Of a DNA stretch of 40,160 nucleotides, positions 6,001 through 36,000 are shown piece by piece. A program made the position numbers. This stretch comes from a virus (taxonomy: Duplodnaviria; Heunggongvirae; Uroviricota; Caudoviricetes). Each line of letters starts with the position of its first letter. The stretch's first letter is position 1. The stretch is from the IMG/VR virus record IMGVR_UViG_2548876867_000015, positions 1 to 40,160 of that record; one strand, written 5' to 3'.

Positions 6001-9000
6001 TATCAAGGGTTGCTTTAACCGTCTGTGACCCATAACCAACCAAGTCAGATCCAGTTGGCTTGGCTAGCTCGATCAATACGTCAGACGCAGACCCTGATGG
6101 AGGAAGCACAACAATAGGGTTACCATCGTTATCGAAAGCAGGCATCTTGTTTGCGCGGGAGGCAGCATCAGGAAGTTGCGGTATCTGCTCCTGAACGCGC
6201 AAAGTACACCCCAGGTTAGAACTGAGCTGTGTATCAACATAATTTTTAGTGGCTGCATCTTGGGGGGTTGAAGGATCGCGTAAGTTTCTGATGTAATTGT
6301 TAAGCGCATCATAATAATTTGCCACGAATGACGGCTTACGCAGCGCCAAGCTAAACCAACTTCGAACTTGCTGGATCAGCATCGTTAGCTTATCAAAAGC
6401 ATCCTCATGCACTTCTGCAAAGAACTTACCCTGATTACGCAAATCAGTTTCCTGCGTAACCGGGAGCTCTCGTGATATAGAAATCTGATAACCGCTAACC
6501 AATTCCTTCGACAGAATTATATTGCCACCATTGTATCCTCCAGCCCCAGTAACTATGTAATCAGTGTCAAGAATCAGCTCTGTGATGTTCTCGTTCAGGT
6601 CAACAACCTGCACTACTAAATCAGATTTCTGGAAAATTCTGAAGGTATAAGGGAATGTCGTTGTAACACCGTTACCGGTGTATTCGTTGTGGTCAACTTC
6701 GGTTGAGACCGTCATGTTAAATCTCCAGATAGTCGCAGCACCCGTTGCGCCGCATATCCGGTTATTCTATTACCTGAAAAACCACATATGGATATATAAT
6801 CCATGAATACGAACAGATATTACCTTTCAGGTGATTCGCAAAACGTGCTGGATAGCAAACAAATTATTTGATACTGTATATTTATACAGTTATTGCATGG
6901 AGAAGATAAGATGCAGCAGTATCACTATCCACTGGAAGACGGATTTACCGAAAGGATTCACACGCCGGGAGGCGTCAGGTCACTGGTGGAGGGATCGCAC
7001 TTGATGAAATTACTCCGGGATCTCGATAAGGATGGATTTAATGTCGATGGCCCACTTGCCGAACTGACTGCACTGATTAACTACGTCACCAGCTCACAGA
7101 TGTCTATGCGGGATCTGCAAACACATCTCGACTATTGTGCCGAACAATTACGAAAACAAACCAGATAAGGTTTGCAATTACCAAGTGGAGTGCTTATATT
7201 TACCTTTTCGGTAAATTTACATCGCACTCCTCTTGTGCCATAGTAATCGGGCACTGGCAAAATCCAGTGCCGGGATTGGCGTCCCGAGTTACTAAGTGGC
7301 GCATACCACGCCAGACGTGGTTTTTTTATGCGTTAAGCACAGCTATATCCGAATTATGGTGGGCTGGGCAGGGGTCCGAAAGGACGCCGGTACCACTTAG
7401 GCCGGTACGCCAACCTTGTCCAGTTCACCACCAGTAATTGGCGTTGCGGTGGTGATTAAAATTACTAAGTGGAGATAACCACCATGGCTAATGCTCAAAC
7501 TGCCATCTTCAAATTTGAATCTGTTAACCCTATCCGTTCCATCATTATCAATGGCCAACCATGGTTTGTAGCCCAAGACGTTTGTAGTGCGCTGCGTATC
7601 CAAAACGTCACCCAAGCACTTGAAAAACTGGATGATGATGAAAGGTCTATGTTCAACATAGGGCATGAACATCGTGCAATTTTTGACAGCCGAGTAAAAG
7701 AGATCAACATCATCTCCGAGTCAGGCCTCTACACACTGATCCTCCGCTGCCGCGACGCAGTGACACCAGGCACTATCCCCTACCGCTTTCGTAAATGGGT
7801 TACAGGTGAGGTTCTTCCTCAGATCCGCCGCACCGGAAGTTACATTAAAAACTCGCTCCCGCAGGAAGAACGCATAAAGATGGTTGCCGACCAGGTAGCC
7901 AACGCCACGGCGTCAGCAGTGATGCAGGCGATGAAGATAGAGAACAAAACCTACAGCGCCCCGCTGAAGCCAGGCTACCGCAGCCTGATTCACTCGCCGT
8001 CTGGTGTTCTCGGCCTGACGGAGAACTCACTGCTGATGAATCTGCTGAACCAGTTACAGGAAGACGGGCACGACGTATCGGGCGCGGCGGCGGAGCTGAC
8101 CACCATGTTCTGCTACATCGTCGGTGTGAGCAAATGCCTGCGTGATATCCAGACGCACGCGGAGTACATCAACGACAAAGCAGGGTTCTTCTGACGGGCG
8201 GTGGCACAGGGATGTGCTTCTGACATAATCATTTGCGGTGTGATGTAGATTCACGTAAGATTACCTTAAAGGTAAACCATGTGTTTACATGAGGAGGAGA
8301 TATGGGATTTTGGTTCGCTCGTACAAAAACGAGGGATAATGCACCCAGCCCTCAGGCAAAAAATGCAGAAGTTCCGGCGTCAGCGCAGGTTAACAAGCGT
8401 GGTGGAGTGTATATCTCATCACAGCAAATTTCTGAGCTTCCTGAGGTTAAGGAGATGCGTCGTCTCGCTGCTGCAATTGTTAAACAGGATCTTGCCACTG
8501 TAAGGAAATAGTGTTGTTAGCTCTTCTAATTATCCCCATTCTGGTTAGTGGTTATATTATGATAACCGCTAACCAGTATCATTACTTCCGTTTATACCGA
8601 CATGAAGGCCAGCTTCTTTATATGAAAGTAGCTGCATTAGGTACATATTGCCTTATTGCTTCAGTAATAATTGCAGCCGCTATAAAATATAAATGGCCTG
8701 ATTTTCACCTAGTCCATGATATGGTGGAAACTTTTAATGTAACGTCAAAACCAGAAACAGATAGAATTTACATGTGGCTGCTTCTTCTGTCAGCTACATC
8801 CATTTGCTTCTCTTTGTGTTATGTATCTGCTGTTTGGGTAAAAAATGTTCTTTTTGGTTTTTTTTATAAACGTGATATTTATGAAGGAATATTAGAGGCA
8901 ATGAAAGCCAGAGTATTGCGAAAAACATACTCACAAGGCTCTTTAGACTTGTTATTACTTGATGCAATCGAATCAGATCCAAAGAAACCAATGTTGATTA

Positions 9001-33000: not shown

Positions 33001-36000
33001 CGCCTTGCCAGCTTCTGCTCCCACTGTGCCTGATGGTATGCCTTACCCTCAGCCATCCAGTAAATTCTGAACTCTGCAAGTTCCTGTGCCGTTGGCAGAC
33101 TGTCCAGGTAGATCCCCTGCAATGAGCTTTTCCGAAGAAAGTCATCTGATGGCTGCCATTGTTCATGCATGACAAATTTGCCTAATTGCCCTGGCCCACC
33201 AGGAGGAACAAAGTTATTCATCACGGCGTTGTTTGCGCCGGGGTCATGAGGCACAGAACCTCGGGTTTTTGTCCTGCTCTCCCTCTCTTGGTTAAATGAC
33301 TGGTTATATGACTGGTTCTGGATCCCGTTTTTGGGATCATTCAACATCCCGTTTTTGGGATCATTCAACATCCCGTTTTTGGGTATATTCCCGTTTTCGG
33401 GAACATTACCGTTTTCGGGTTCATTGCTCCCTTCCCGGTTGCCTTTAATGTTCCCGTTTTTGGTTATATTAAGAGAGAAAACCCGCACTCTTTTCGTCGC
33501 TCCCTTTCTCTCTCCGGTATCTGAAATAAGCCCCATTTTCATGAGCGATATAAGCCCGGCCTGCACGGTTTTTTTATTCAGGCAAGTGTCTTTAACGAGG
33601 CGTTCTATGCTGGGGTAGCAGAGGTTATATTCATCGGCTCTGTCAGCCATCGAGAGCAGTATGAGCTTTAATGATGAGCTACCTGGATCTGTCTCCCAGG
33701 CCCAATCTGTTGCATGTCTGCTCATGATTAATCTCCGCTATCAGCTTGAATGTTGTGGGGAGGAATTAATCATGATCTGCTTAATCTCTGCCCTGATGCG
33801 ACGGTTTGATTCCATGGTGCACTCAACACAGTGTCCGTTGTAAACCCAGCGTTCACTGTCATGTCCGTGCTTACATGGTTTTCCGGTGTAGTAGCGTTTA
33901 AGTCCGCGCTTTGCGGCATCAATACGTGTAATGATTTCCATGGTAAGCCCTGTTATTAGTATTGGGATTACGGTTATTTTGTGCTGACACAAAAAAAAGA
34001 TCAACCAGATTTGGTTTTTTATTACCTTTAAGGTGCGAATAGATATGAAAAGACCGCCGGATGGCGGTCTACAGAGGTTTGTGGCTGGATATCATGAGTA
34101 GAAGAAGTATGCCAGTTCTGCTTTTGAGCGCAGCCATTGTCTTGTTTTACAGGCTTTAAAAAGCCCATTCATCAATACTTTACCTGGCATTTTGCGCTTA
34201 CCTGTTAAGTGAGTCTGGATATAGTGACTCGTCGTTCCGGCTTCCTGTGCGAAGGCTTCACGCTCATCCGGAGTAAGTGCAAGCCAGTGCTTTTTGAAAT
34301 CGAAATGTCCGTTATCGCTCATAGCTATTGCCTGATATTTATTTCAGATAATAAATATTCACCCATAAGGTAACAAAAATCAAGGATAGTTACCTATGGG
34401 GTGCATTTACCTGTTGGGTAATATTGCTTTAAATTGAATCATCTACTGATTCATATATGAGGCGATTCTCCAGAAAATGAAAAGTATCCAGGACGTCCGC
34501 AGGCAAAATCTCAACGACTTGATCGACCGTGAATTCAATGGTGTTCAGACGCGGATGGCAGAAAAACTTGGAACTCAGGCAAATCTGGTAAACCGCTGGG
34601 CTCTTGGCAAGAAGGTTATCGGCGACCAGGTTGCGCGAAAAATTGAAGCTGCCGCCAATAAACCCCGTAACTGGCTTGATATCGATCGCTCGCTTTCTCA
34701 GGAGGGGGTTCAGCCTGTCGGACCAAGCGACATTGGTCAGCTGGCGGCTCACAACCTGGAACGCTGGATGAGCGAAAGCCGCGACCTTTCAACACAGGGA
34801 AAACTTCACCGCGCATCCGGCGTCGCCCAGGTGACAATTAGCCGCCTGTTAAACAATGAGGTCAGCGTTTCCATTTCCACCCTGGAGAATGTTGCATCAG
34901 CATTCGGGCGTCACGGATATGAACTACTGATTCACCCGCATGACCCTGCAACTATCAACTATGACCGCTCGCGCTACGCATTGTTACCTGAAACAGAGAA
35001 GGCAAAGATCGAAAGTTACATTGAATTTGTCATCAGCCAGAACGAAAAAAGCAAACAATAAAACTATAGTTTTCAGTAAGTAAGCCGCCTCATGGCGGCT
35101 TTTTTATTGCCCGCACAATTACCTTGCGGGTAATTTTTTTAACTCATATCTATTGACATCAAACCAGATACGCATAATCATTACCTAAACGGTAACAAGC
35201 CGAGGTAACAAGTTATGCAGTGGAAAATCATCAACGGTTGGTACTGCGTTACTGCATGCGGATTCATGAGCTGGAAGTTCCGCACCTTACAGGAAGGCAT
35301 TAAGTGGGCTTTCGTCAGCAAAGAAGCTCGCGATGTGGCCAACGATAACGAGATATGGGAGGGCTGATAATGAACGTTAATCAGCAGAAAAATCTTCAAA
35401 AAATCATGCTGGCATTCGACAAGGACTACCGCCTGTCAGAACAGCTATATGACCGACAAGTTGAACTGATTGAGAGCATCCGACTTCATCAACTGTCCTC
35501 AACTTTCGACGTTGTAACAGGCAAAGGCGTTCGTCAGGAAGTACTGGAGGCTGCTAAAGACAGCCCTGAGTTCGAAGAACTGATGGATGCCTATCGGCGA
35601 GAGGCAATGGCAATTATCGCCCGCTGGGATCTGGCGGATCAGCTTGATGGACAGAAGGACGCGGCATGAAACCGGGAATTTATTTCGACATCAGCAACGA
35701 AGACTACCACGCCGGTGACGGCGTGAGTAAGTCGCAACTTGACATGGTTGCCAAGAATCCGGCGCTTCTTAAATGGGTTCAGGCAGCACCAGAAGACGAA
35801 GAGAAAAAGTCTGCACTGGATATGGGAACCGCATTGCACTGTCTGCTTCTGGAGCCTGGAGAGTTCGACAAACGCTTCATTGTTTCACCGAAATTCGATC
35901 GTCGGACGAAACAAGGTAAAGCTGACGAAGAGGCATTTCTTCGTGATGTGGCGGATATGGGGATTACGGTACTTGATGCCGAGCAGTGGCGGAAACTGGA

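Follow-up and report, generated by a model that had tools for sequence, protein, structure and literature searches.

Judged by its sequence matches to phiV10, TL-2011b and related phages, the window, i.e. the whole stretch of 40,160 nucleotides that was analysed, is a phiV10/epsilon15-like prophage (epsilon15/SPC32H/phiV10-type Uetakevirus) with E. coli as host. A 15-bp palindrome, TTACC-N5-GGTAA (TTACCNNNNNGGTAA), recurs in it at 14 sites if degenerate copies are included, with the consensus (A/T)TTACC-N5-GGTAA(T/A). These sites, termed operators in the following, and the features around them are:

6820..6834, unstranded: operator with one mismatch, TTACCTTTCAGGTGA, located where the small antirepressor (Ant) gene and the tailspike gene diverge (14.9 bits)
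6874..6889, plus strand: LexA box, CTGTATATTTATACAG, whose end lies 22 nt upstream of the small Ant start codon
6911..7168, plus strand: small antirepressor of 85 aa, homologue of SPC32H Ant
7172..7200, plus strand: promoter-like site TTGCAA-17-TATATT of the isrK/C4/Bro-N antirepressor operon
7200..7214, unstranded: exact operator, TTACCTTTTCGGTAA, beginning on the last base of the -10 hexamer (24.9 bits)
7251..7435, plus strand: leader RNAs between operator 7200 and the Bro-N antirepressor gene, isrK-like (7251-7327) and C4 antisense-like (7352-7435)
7484..8194, plus strand: second antirepressor, a fusion of Bro-N with an Ant-like C-terminal domain
8261..8275, unstranded: exact operator, TTACCTTAAAGGTAA, preceding the cargo cassette (8302-10077)
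26511..26525, unstranded: exact operator, TTACCTTTCAGGTAA, located where the tRNA-Arg island (plus strand) and the gp3/portal operon (minus strand) diverge
29468..29500, unstranded: pair of operators spaced by 18 bp, an exact one at 29486 and one with a single mismatch at 29468, with an intrinsic terminator on one side and the terS start codon on the other
32014..32090, minus strand: pair of operators spaced by exactly 62 bp, the upstream one at 32076 and the downstream one at 32014, at the promoter of the DUF1064 gene
34022..34036, unstranded: degenerate operator with two mismatches, TTACCTTTAAGGTGC, between the terminator of the cro-like gene and the next early-right gene (12.6 bits)
34092..34322, minus strand: cro-like gene, 76 aa, phrog_35 transcriptional repressor, 76% identity to epsilon15 gp39
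34359..34421, unstranded: three-part operator in the interval between the cro-like gene and rep, at 34359 (one mismatch), 34390 (two mismatches) and 34407 (exact)
34477..35061, plus strand: repressor Rep, 194 aa, with an N-terminal HTH domain and a C-terminal domain that also scores as HTH_3
35119..35195, plus strand: pair of operators spaced by exactly 62 bp, the upstream one at 35119 and the downstream one at 35181, at the early-left promoter

The palindrome is genuine. Nine exact copies are present in the window as compared to 0.05 expected from dinucleotide-preserving shuffles, a number that was attained in none of 100 shuffles, and 12 matches were found with at most one mismatch (0.54 expected). 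An independent weight matrix, trained on sites of epsilon15, Tyrion and BUCT711 with the window sites excluded from training, gave 13 window hits of at least 10 bits (0.16 expected); site 34390, scoring 8.6 bits and hence under this threshold, was kept in the set because its position corresponds to an exact epsilon15 site. The matrix scan and the shuffle comparison, both suggested in an earlier note on this DNA, thus revealed a strong enrichment. That note had listed 12 sites, all of which are present at the coordinates it gave (eight exact, 6820 and 34359 with one mismatch, 34022 and 34390 with two), and had overlooked the pair in front of the small terminase gene (29486 and 29468). All 14 sites are intergenic although only 8.1% of the window is (binomial P about 5e-16), a count that uses the terS start as annotated in epsilon15 and TL-2011b, whereas under the longer terS annotation of phiV10 two sites would fall within the 5' end of that gene. 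The system as such is not new but a well-supported case of an already known one, since the GenBank record of epsilon15 already annotates the same motif as a repressor site, namely at seven ATTACC-N5-GGTAAT sites labelled 'protein_bind: repressor' and located at places that match window sites.

In the late region, operator 6820 starts 54 bp before the LexA box, a position and offset that are identical in six genomes, and its epsilon15 counterpart (19895-19911) is among those annotated as repressor binding. The LexA box itself is kept in phiV10, TL-2011b, Tyrion, epsilon15 and SPC32H. The small Ant behind it matches the anti-repressor families phrog_450 and phrog_1760 and is 82% identical to epsilon15 gp19; what had previously been called an antirepressor paralog is, with 86% identity, a homologue of the characterised, LexA-controlled Ant of SPC32H. 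Both leader RNAs of the following operon score above the Rfam gathering thresholds (67.2 bits for the isrK-like and 66 bits for the C4 antisense-like RNA), and the second antirepressor is recognised as Bro-N by Pfam (5.7e-20), as phrog_130 Ant and, over residues 153-234, as phrog_450. Operator 8261 begins, by a reading by eye, on the last base of a weak -10 (TTGCGG-17-TAAGAT); for the proteins of the cargo cassette behind it, family searches gave no match. Operator 26511, the counterpart of which in epsilon15 (2931-2947) is annotated as repressor binding, overlaps a plus-strand core promoter that can be read as TTGACA-17-TACCTT or as TAGATA-18-AATTAT. At the terS pair, whose epsilon15 counterpart (12-27) carries the same label, an extended -10 on the minus strand (TGgTACTAT) ends on the first base of site 29486. 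Since the tailspike and portal operons, which run leftward, are faced by sites 6820 and 26511 as well, the regulon is not confined to the plus-strand islands and probably includes late operons.

The two 62-bp pairs of the early region each flank a promoter. Sites 32076 and 32014 enclose the minus-strand promoter TTGATT-17-TTTAAT of DUF1064 and later genes, with 32014 starting at the final -10 base, and the pair corresponds to an annotated repressor binding site of epsilon15 (35906-35922). Sites 35119 and 35181 enclose, as had been claimed, the early-left promoter, which can be specified as TTGACA-17-AATCAT (35153-35181), and the corresponding epsilon15 sites (32554-32570 and 32616-32632) are again annotated as repressor binding. 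The claim of three sites between rep and the cro-like gene also proved correct. These are spaced by 31 and 17 bp, with 34359 lying within the -35/spacer of the leftward promoter and 34407 overlapping the likely -35 of the rep promoter, and the same three-site layout is present in epsilon15, SPC32H and Tyrion. Even the degenerate site 34022 has counterparts, with one mismatch each, in phiV10 (33112) and Tyrion (35365). Hypervariable patches adjoin two of the operator sites.

With regard to promoters, a -10-like hexamer ends on operator base 1 in 8 of the 28 site-strand combinations (local background 0.6%), and at five promoters, those at 7200, 8261, 29486, 32014 and 35181, the operator starts on the last -10 base. 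Several promoters at operators were identified by eye, and the promoter scan tool called none at 8261, 26511 or 32014.

Conservation in related phages, on which the earlier note had made its proposal depend, was found in seven genomes, whose hosts belong to four genera (Escherichia, Salmonella, Enterobacter and Klebsiella); in these the palindrome occupies matching positions with 8-11 exact sites per genome. The 62-bp spacing of both early pairs is kept in all seven, and further spacings kept across the genus are 17 + 30/31 bp at the switch and 18 bp. Among 72 distinct near-identical contigs, 6.7% of the half-site positions are polymorphic compared to 50% of the N5 spacer positions of the same operators, with rates of 25% for other intergenic positions and 11.8% for the rep coding sequence. 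The half-sites are thus under strong purifying selection while the N5 spacers vary freely.

The question arises which protein reads these sites. From our point of view, it is highly probable that the 14 palindromes are operators of Rep, the main repressor, placed at nearly every promoter region, and annotation, homology and co-occurrence all point to Rep as the most likely reader. Rep matches the solved structure of the SPC32H repressor (PDB 5D50, E 6.6e-42) and is 98.5% identical to the repressors of ZX5 and phiV10 and 42% identical to SPC32H Rep and to the epsilon15 repressor. Across all Rep homologues, the stretch NLVNRW is invariant despite an overall identity of only 42-45%, and it probably represents the recognition helix. 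Pfam detects only HTH families in Rep and no peptidase S24 domain; the second detectable HTH sits in the C-terminal half, which in SPC32H Rep reportedly serves tetramerisation and antirepressor binding. In unrelated phages that share only the N-terminal domain of Rep, TTACC-N4-GGTAA or TACC-N5-GGTA is found around the repressor genes: PseuP_224 carries four TTACC-N4-GGTAA sites flanking its repressor, and the repressors of CharmingMan and pOW20-A are likewise flanked by the half-site, while the distant N-terminal-domain homologues of phiE125 and Hafnia yong2 showed no such motif. As in distant phages the half-site accompanies the N-terminal domain alone, it is likely that only this HTH reads DNA. 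A secondary account of SPC32H describes Rep as a tetramer on palindromic sites, in which two N-terminal domains from different dimers together read each palindrome, and tetrameric Ant as disassembling/releasing Rep. In the near-identical phage ZX5, overexpression of the 98.5% identical repressor abolished free phage and decreased holin and endolysin mRNA by 99.97-99.99%.

The earlier note had postulated one dimeric regulator, most likely the dual-HTH repressor. The choice of the repressor is supported by the epsilon15 annotation, the homology to SPC32H, conservation, selection and the ZX5 data; by homology, however, Rep is probably a tetramer rather than a simple dimer, and one of its two HTHs likely does not contact the operator. 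Control of the immunity switch and of the antirepressor, cargo, tRNA and replication-region promoters by one regulator is likewise supported, but the proposed regulon was probably too narrow, as it left out the terS pair and the portal and tailspike operons that are also faced.

In lambda-type switches, Cro and the repressor use common operators, and the cro-like protein (34092-34322) could be imagined as the main reader instead of Rep, with the dispersed sites serving to turn early promoters down in lytic growth. It is better conserved than Rep (76% versus 42% identity to epsilon15), has an invariant stretch (GTTSHYIQTHLTG) that would fit an invariant operator, and belongs to a PHROG annotated as transcriptional repressor. 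Two of the three distant half-site phages, pOW20-A (E 9e-12) and CharmingMan (E 8e-5), encode a homologue of it beside the repressor, and both have TACC palindromes. We nevertheless regard this as improbable. PseuP_224 has its four sites yet no cro-like homologue in its 5.2-kb locus, the epsilon15 record credits the sites to the repressor, the sites before terS, the tRNA island and the antirepressor operon fit lysogenic silencing, and in ZX5 lytic transcripts are shut off when nothing but the repressor is overexpressed. The cro-like protein and Rep could, moreover, share the switch sites, which is compatible with Rep as the main reader.

It is very unlikely that the palindromes are merely conserved linkers at module boundaries that promote recombination and mosaicism and have no regulatory role of their own. 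The motif does occur in nearly every intergenic junction of all genus members, where it would provide microhomology for module exchange, site-flanked modules differ among relatives (the cargo cassette; DUF1064 versus RuvC), and the hypervariable patches next to two sites may be counted for such a role. However, 15 bases with a free 5-nt centre are a poor recombination substrate, the precise -10 registration and the fixed spacings of 62, 18 and 17 bp are requirements of a DNA-binding protein, and the clustering near repressor genes in unrelated phages agrees with such a protein. A linker role, if there is one, would be secondary. That a host DNA-binding protein common to Enterobacteriaceae has been recruited by the phages seems scarcely credible to us, even though the motif is unchanged across phages of four enterobacterial genera while Rep diverged, as would be expected for a conserved host factor. 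In Pseudomonas and Psychrobacter phages, Rep-like repressor genes are flanked by related half-sites with another spacing, and we know of no E. coli regulator with this consensus. Given that the presumed recognition helix of Rep is invariant, an invariant motif also needs no host factor.

With Rep as the reader, each palindrome would be bound by a pair of its N-terminal HTH domains, and a Rep tetramer, assumed by homology with SPC32H Rep, would comprise two DNA-reading units and could hold two operators at once. Bridging of two operators by one tetramer would account for the fixed spacings, namely 62 bp at the two early promoters and 17-18 bp at the immunity switch and the terS leader. As the operator covers the transcription start at five promoters, bound Rep would exclude RNA polymerase there; of the sites at the immunity switch, one occupies the spacer of the leftward promoter of the cro-like gene, and the other two cover or adjoin the -35 of the rep promoter. 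In the lysogen, Rep would silence almost every transcription unit directly and without a cascade: the early-left operon, the early-right operon with its distal DUF1064 segment, the operons of terS-terL and of the isrK/C4/Bro-N antirepressor, the cargo cassette, the tRNA-Arg island and, probably, the operons of portal and tailspike. Homology, together with the LexA box, suggests that upon DNA damage LexA would leave the box at 6874-6889 and small Ant would be made, which would bind Rep and strip it from all operators at once. Removal of Rep would also free the second, Rep-controlled antirepressor and could thereby establish a feed-forward lock. Since the C-terminal domain of Rep is only 39% identical to that of SPC32H Rep, compared to 86% for Ant, the Ant-Rep interaction cannot be assumed to carry over.

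The closest known system is the Rep-operator-Ant switch of the Salmonella Uetakeviruses epsilon15 and SPC32H (SPN1S-type), which is said to govern their lysis-lysogeny decision. Shared features are the homologous repressor without an S24 peptidase domain, the operator consensus (identical in epsilon15, with like site positions and spacings) and the LexA box before small Ant. The present prophage differs by additional, presumably Rep-controlled units with an operator each, i.e. the isrK/C4 leader with the Bro-N-Ant fusion, which is also present in phiV10 and TL-2011b, and the cargo cassette. It further has two instead of three early-left operators and, unlike epsilon15 and SPC32H, no operator upstream of the lysis cassette.

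Phage P1 C1 is similar in that a single main repressor, with operators dispersed over the genome rather than gathered in two clusters, directly controls many operons that are not linked, and in that its targets include an antirepressor operon with a C4 antisense RNA leader (immI: c4 RNA, icd, ant), the promoter of which is here overlapped by operator 7200. However, the operators of P1, whose prophage is a plasmid, are 17-mers without symmetry, and C1 and Rep are not related; here, the sites are palindromes that would be read by an HTH protein, and induction would proceed via LexA-controlled Ant. The system resembles lambda CI (OR1-3, OL1-3) in having a tripartite operator where the repressor gene and the cro-like gene diverge and another cluster at the early-left promoter, and probably also in binding cooperatively or by bridging. 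In lambda, the operators form just two clusters and late genes are controlled indirectly, compared to 14 sites at about 10 places here, and CI is a dimer that self-cleaves with RecA, as opposed to a reportedly tetrameric repressor without an S24 domain and with antirepressor induction.

Inactivation of a non-cleavable repressor by a small protein behind a LexA box is also known from coliphage 186 Tum, the Gifsy/Fels-2 antirepressors and N15 AntC, but these proteins are unrelated, and here a second antirepressor would be controlled by the repressor itself and by a C4-type RNA. Finally, the stoperators of cluster A mycobacteriophages (L5, Bxb1) resemble the present sites in being numerous repressor sites spread over the entire prophage, late regions among them. 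They are asymmetric, depend on orientation, lie inside transcribed regions and stop elongation, whereas the sites described here form palindromes, all of them intergenic and most in register with core promoters.

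The palindrome TTACC-N5-GGTAA is far more frequent in the window than its composition would give: TTACCNNNNNGGTAA has nine exact matches against 0.05 expected from dinucleotide-preserving shuffles of the 40,160-bp sequence (0 of 100 shuffles reached nine), and allowing up to one mismatch yields 12 matches in the window against 0.54 expected. A weight matrix trained only on sites from epsilon15, Tyrion and BUCT711 returned 13 window matches scoring at least 10 bits, where 0.16 would be expected, and gave site 34390 a score of 8.6 bits. The matrix scan and enrichment test proposed in an earlier note, made by a model from the sequence alone, hence put the motif strongly above expectation, and the shuffles together with the independently trained matrix rule out chance, or plain AT-rich composition, as its source. 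In all, nine exact and five degenerate operators were found, all 14 in intergenic sequence, which makes up 8.1% of the window (P about 5e-16), and the consensus gains one further base at either end, giving (A/T)TTACC-N5-GGTAA(T/A) around an A/T-rich spacer. The 12 operator strings quoted in the earlier note are all present at the right coordinates, eight of them exact, two (6820, 34359) with one mismatch and two (34022, 34390) with two; what its list left out is the pair at terS, namely the exact site 29486 and its one-mismatch neighbour 29468.

Given its 96-99% identity over long stretches to the Escherichia phages TL-2011b, phiV10, ZX5, PAS61 and others, the window is an epsilon15-like podovirus prophage of the genus Uetakevirus, in an orientation reversed relative to the phiV10 record. 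The genes on which the argument turns are the following:

34477-35061 (+), repressor (Rep), 98.5-100% identical to the phiV10, ZX5 and TL-2011b repressors
34092-34322 (-), cro-like gene
6911-7168 (+), small antirepressor (Ant)
7484-8194 (+), Bro-N protein with a C-terminal part resembling the small antirepressor
about 29465 to 10442, late operon, running leftward from terS

The GenBank record of epsilon15 (AY150271.2) carries seven features labelled "protein_bind: repressor; lysogeny", all ATTACC-N5-GGTAAT, a consensus identical to that of the window. They lie before terS, before gp3, in the gap separating gp19 (Ant) from the tailspike gene, in the gap separating the replication genes from RuvC and, three of them, at the early-left promoter; their counterparts in the window are 29486, 26511, 6820, 32076 and, for early-left, 35119/35181. 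Operators occupy epsilon15-matching positions in the terS leader, upstream of gp3, between ant and tailspike, at early-left, between rep and cro and in the replication-distal region. The exception is the operator upstream of the lysis cassette, which is present in phiV10, epsilon15, Tyrion and SPC32H and missing from the window and TL-2011b, where its place is taken by AT-rich sequence adjoining a different O-antigen-modification-like gene (compared at position 24692 of comparison sequence L001, 24704 of L002 and 3100-3445 of the window). The phiV10 record holds no repressor-site features, and a full-text literature search, which did not reach the paper on the epsilon15 genome or the two on SPC32H, found the operator sites nowhere described. 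For epsilon15 and SPC32H, the motif, its attribution to the repressor and the logic of induction were known before; the window adds a further member to this system, equipped with additional Rep-controlled modules, and no new kind of system. Somewhat beyond the visible annotation go the map of all 14 sites and their spacing rules, the footprint in the population, and the finding that in unrelated phages the TACC half-site is linked to the family of the N-terminal domain.

Conservation in related phages, the lack of which would by the earlier note have refuted its reading, is extensive: seven genomes, whose hosts are Escherichia, Salmonella, Enterobacter and Klebsiella, carry 8-11 exact operators each against about 0.03 expected. 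Yet the repressors of the E. coli group are only 42-45% identical to those of the Salmonella and Klebsiella groups. We had expected repressors of 42-78% identity to have different operators; the motif is, however, identical in all genomes compared, a sameness that would fit Rep and the cro-like protein alike as its reader. The arrangement is kept as well: the paired operators at the early-left and DUF1064/RuvC promoters are 62 bp apart across the genus (63 bp in one case, BUCT711), those of the immunity switch 17 plus 30 or 31 bp, those of the terS leader 18 bp, and the operator before ant lies 54 bp from a LexA box. For a population footprint, viral contigs were scanned with a Rep alignment, which gave 80 loci, all with a Rep 98-100% identical, of which 76 were full length and yielded 72 distinct sequences, and the intergenic stretches around rep were compared. 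Among the 72 sequences, 6.7% of half-site positions are polymorphic (mean minor-allele fraction 0.007), compared with 11.8% of rep coding positions (0.013), 25% of other intergenic positions (0.038) and 50% of positions in the N5 spacers (0.075). The half-sites are thus under tighter constraint than coding sequence while the spacers are free, which is the expected pattern for a protein touching both outer pentamers.

The position of the operators relative to the promoters suggests how repression would work. Those at 7200, 35181, 32014, 8261 and 29486 each start at the last base of a -10 element, the promoters being TTGCAA-17-TATATT (ending at 7200) and TTGACA-17-AATCAT (ending at 35181) from a promoter scan, and TTGATT-17-TTTAAT (ending at 32028, - strand), TTGCGG-17-TAAGAT (ending at 8261) and the extended -10 TGgTACTAT (ending at 29500, - strand; TGtTACTAT in epsilon15) as read by eye. 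A -10-like hexamer that ends at operator base 1 and is accompanied by a -35 or TG occurs in 8 of 28 site-strand combinations against a local background of 0.6%. Each of the five operators named above would cover the transcription start. The scan tool backs the promoters at 7200 and 35181 and the leftward switch promoter; it did not call those at 8261, 26511 and 32014 and found only a weaker upstream site at terS, so that the promoters outside its calls rest on reading by eye and on the registration statistic. A promoter at 26511 toward the tRNA island is plausible, if weak by the criteria of the tool. In an ungapped comparison, 14 paired-operator promoters share one plan, consisting of an intrinsic terminator, the upstream operator, about 19 bp, the -35, 17 bp, the -10 and the downstream operator, whose first base is the last base of the -10. 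A reading of the upstream operator 35119 as a hairpin or terminator fits only the window's own sequence; it is not conserved and was rejected. Directly 5' of each upstream operator, between it and the T-run of the terminator, lie 8-nt patches (35111-35118 and 32091-32098) that are hypervariable among otherwise 97-99% identical phages, with many unrelated alleles, a minor-allele fraction of 0.4-0.6 and variation well above that of synonymous sites in rep.

As the earlier note stated, three operators (34359, 34390 and 34407) stand between the divergent repressor and cro-like genes, and like those of a lambda-type switch they are adjacent and lie over both promoters. Site 34359 falls within the -35/spacer of the leftward switch promoter TTGTTA-17-TATTAT, in the conserved block TTGATTTTT, and 34407 shares bases with what is probably the -35 of the rep promoter, a conserved TAAATT following downstream. 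In contrast to a lambda-type switch, the operators are not confined to OR and OL and occupy about 10 separate places in the window, late-gene regions included. Outside the switch and the early-left promoter, the earlier note had placed the sites before the + strand islands within the late operon and in the replication region. From the divergent regions that hold sites 6820 and 26511, however, transcription would also enter the tailspike and gp3/portal operons, and hence these late genes are probably under direct control, too.

The question arises which protein reads the operator, Rep or the cro-like protein. Rep is a homologue of SPC32H Rep over both domains (phmmer against PDB: 5D50_A, E 6.6e-42, residues 1-190; C-terminal domain 5D4Z, 3.7e-20), with 42-43% identity to SPC32H Rep and epsilon15 gp38, and its C-terminal domain, which matches that of SPC32H Rep, is 39% identical to it. 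The only clear Pfam HTH_3 match of Rep lies in this C-terminal half (residues 106-147), the N-terminal domain scoring weakly; the C-terminal HTH, however, varies among the homologues, all of which keep the N-terminal stretch NLVNRW unchanged, and this fits an invariant operator that would be read by the N-terminal domain. Further evidence comes from five distant phages, chosen because their repressors have only the N-terminal domain of Rep in common.

Distant phages sharing the N-terminal domain of Rep: repressor, and sites found around it
Pseudomonas PseuP_224: S24-type cI, 39% identical over 71 residues; TTACC-N4-GGTAA four times around cI
E. coli CharmingMan: N-terminal domain only; three upstream and two downstream sites, N4 spacing as in PseuP_224
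Psychrobacter pOW20-A: N-terminal domain only; TACC-N5-GGTA four times
Burkholderia phiE125: N-terminal domain only; none
Hafnia yong2: N-terminal domain only; none

Three of the five thus carry the half-site, and it was not found around the repressors of the other two, phiE125 and Hafnia yong2. Since two of these three phages, pOW20-A and CharmingMan, have a cro-like homologue as well, the sole case that tells Rep from the cro-like protein is PseuP_224, whose locus lacks a cro-like homologue and which, by this comparison, favours the N-terminal domain of Rep as the reader. In ZX5, whose repressor is 98.5% identical to Rep, overexpression of the repressor was reported to abolish free phage and to lower holin and endolysin mRNA by 99.97-99.99%, functional data that come without operator mapping; the Bro-N antirepressor was reported to lower lysogeny (ZX5 paper).

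The earlier note had proposed a single dimeric regulator, most likely the dual-HTH repressor (or Cro), and of these Rep is favoured. The C-terminal domain of SPC32H Rep is reported by Kim et al. 2016 (PNAS) to serve oligomerisation and Ant binding, and the best reading of "dual HTH" is a single domain that reads DNA, joined to this C-terminal domain. A paper of 2022 describes, at second hand, a SPC32H Rep that binds DNA as a tetramer, with domain pairs on palindromic sites drawn from different dimers, and a tetrameric Ant that breaks the Rep tetramer (PMC9638917). The regulator is probably not a simple dimer. With the two DNA-reading units that a Rep tetramer would have, it could clamp the 62-bp pairs, whose members are some six helical turns apart, and equally the operator pairs of 17-18 bp.

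Rep further differs from the repressor of a lambda-type switch in lacking the C-terminal self-cleavage domain (S24, LexA-like), its Pfam scan giving HTH families only. A LexA box, CTGTATATTTATACAG, lies at 6874-6889, 22 nt before the ATG of the small Ant, and is kept in six genomes, and Ant itself is 86% identical to SPC32H Ant and 82% to that of epsilon15. Taken together, a Rep without self-cleavage domain, the LexA box and the close similarity to SPC32H Ant suggest that Ant should be released upon DNA damage and would then remove Rep from every operator simultaneously. The second antirepressor operon, behind the 7200 operator, could then act as a feed-forward lock once Rep falls off. The leader of this operon, between the operator and promoter at 7172-7214 and the Bro-N/Ant gene, contains an isrK-like Hfq-binding RNA (7251-7327, +; Rfam 67.2 bits, above the gathering score) and a C4-like antisense RNA (Rfam RF01695; 7352-7435, +; 66 bits, the gathering score being 45). 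The arrangement is a P1 immI-like c4-ant module placed within an epsilon15-like prophage, and has in common with the P1 immI operon a C4 antisense RNA upstream of the antirepressor gene on the same strand. As a side observation, the identity of 82-86% between the Ant proteins, set against the 39% of the Rep C-terminal domains, would be an odd asymmetry for an interacting pair if Ant binds that domain, as Kim et al. 2016 (PNAS) reportedly found. A second CTGT-N8-ACAG match, CTGTAAACCAGTACAG, was seen at 27040-27055 (+) in the tRNA island, upstream of a 64-aa ORF (27115-27309). With 0.59 matches of this kind expected per window, either chance or a weak LexA box could account for it.

From our point of view, the use of these results is that the phiV10/TL-2011b group of E. 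coli prophages, which includes phages of O157 and O103 EHEC strains, now has a full operator map: 14 sites, the rules of their spacing and their registration on promoters. The map predicts that both antirepressors, the tRNA-Arg island, the cargo cassette and terS-terL are silent in the lysogen, offers material for probing the published tetramer model of SPC32H Rep via the 62-bp pairs, and raises the question whether phages that have one operator word in common show cross-immunity even though the identity of their repressors is only 42%. One could speculate about a joint reading, which we consider rather unlikely: Uetakeviruses, unlike lambdoid phages, would keep the one word TTACC-N5-GGTAA though Rep diverged to 42%, and if so, immunity would not be diversified via operator specificity; Rep would gate every transcription unit directly, late operons included, acting at the gp3/portal, tailspike and lysis promoters with a second palindrome, AACCA-N4-TGGTT, read by another regulator; the 62-bp pairs would be clamped by a single tetramer; and the hypervariable 8-nt patches would mark a site-directed mutational or selective process.

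The second palindrome occurs at 3150-3163, 6780-6793, 26459-26472, 32034-32044 and 34003-34016 and is kept genus-wide, with AACCATATATGGTT as an example in phiV10 and Tyrion; up to one mismatch there are nine matches in the window against 1.0 expected. Before the lysis cassette, tailspike and gp3/portal genes, it precedes -10-like hexamers of the - strand by 7 nt, and it is also found within the spacers of the DUF1064 and p42 promoters. A second regulator may bind there, for instance the cro-like protein or a late activator.

The cargo cassette (8302-10077, +) holds four ORFs, for which Pfam, NCBIfam and PADLOC returned no match. It lies behind a Rep operator and its predicted silence in the lysogen follows from this, which is unusual for a moron-like insert. 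A perfect 12-bp palindrome, GTGACATGTCAC, is present three times (10004-10015, 27314-27325, 29579-29590; 0.02 expected) and in all seven genomes stands where the structural operon, terL and the early-right operon have their 3' ends; the phiV10 record begins within one copy. Inside the replication initiator gene (32910-33725), CCCGTTTTTGG occurs four times (33323-33463, -), three copies at a 24-bp period and each within a small hairpin-plus-T motif, and this is probably the replication origin, with iterons like those in lambda O. Lastly, ATACCGTCAC is found four times (1252-1261, 39639-39648, 39892-39901, 39982-39991), adjoining the Rz end and inside the integrase gene, at places matching 10-bp "integrase" sites annotated in the epsilon15 record. 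These are probably arm-type sites of the integrase, in which case bases 1 to about 1250 would fall outside the prophage.
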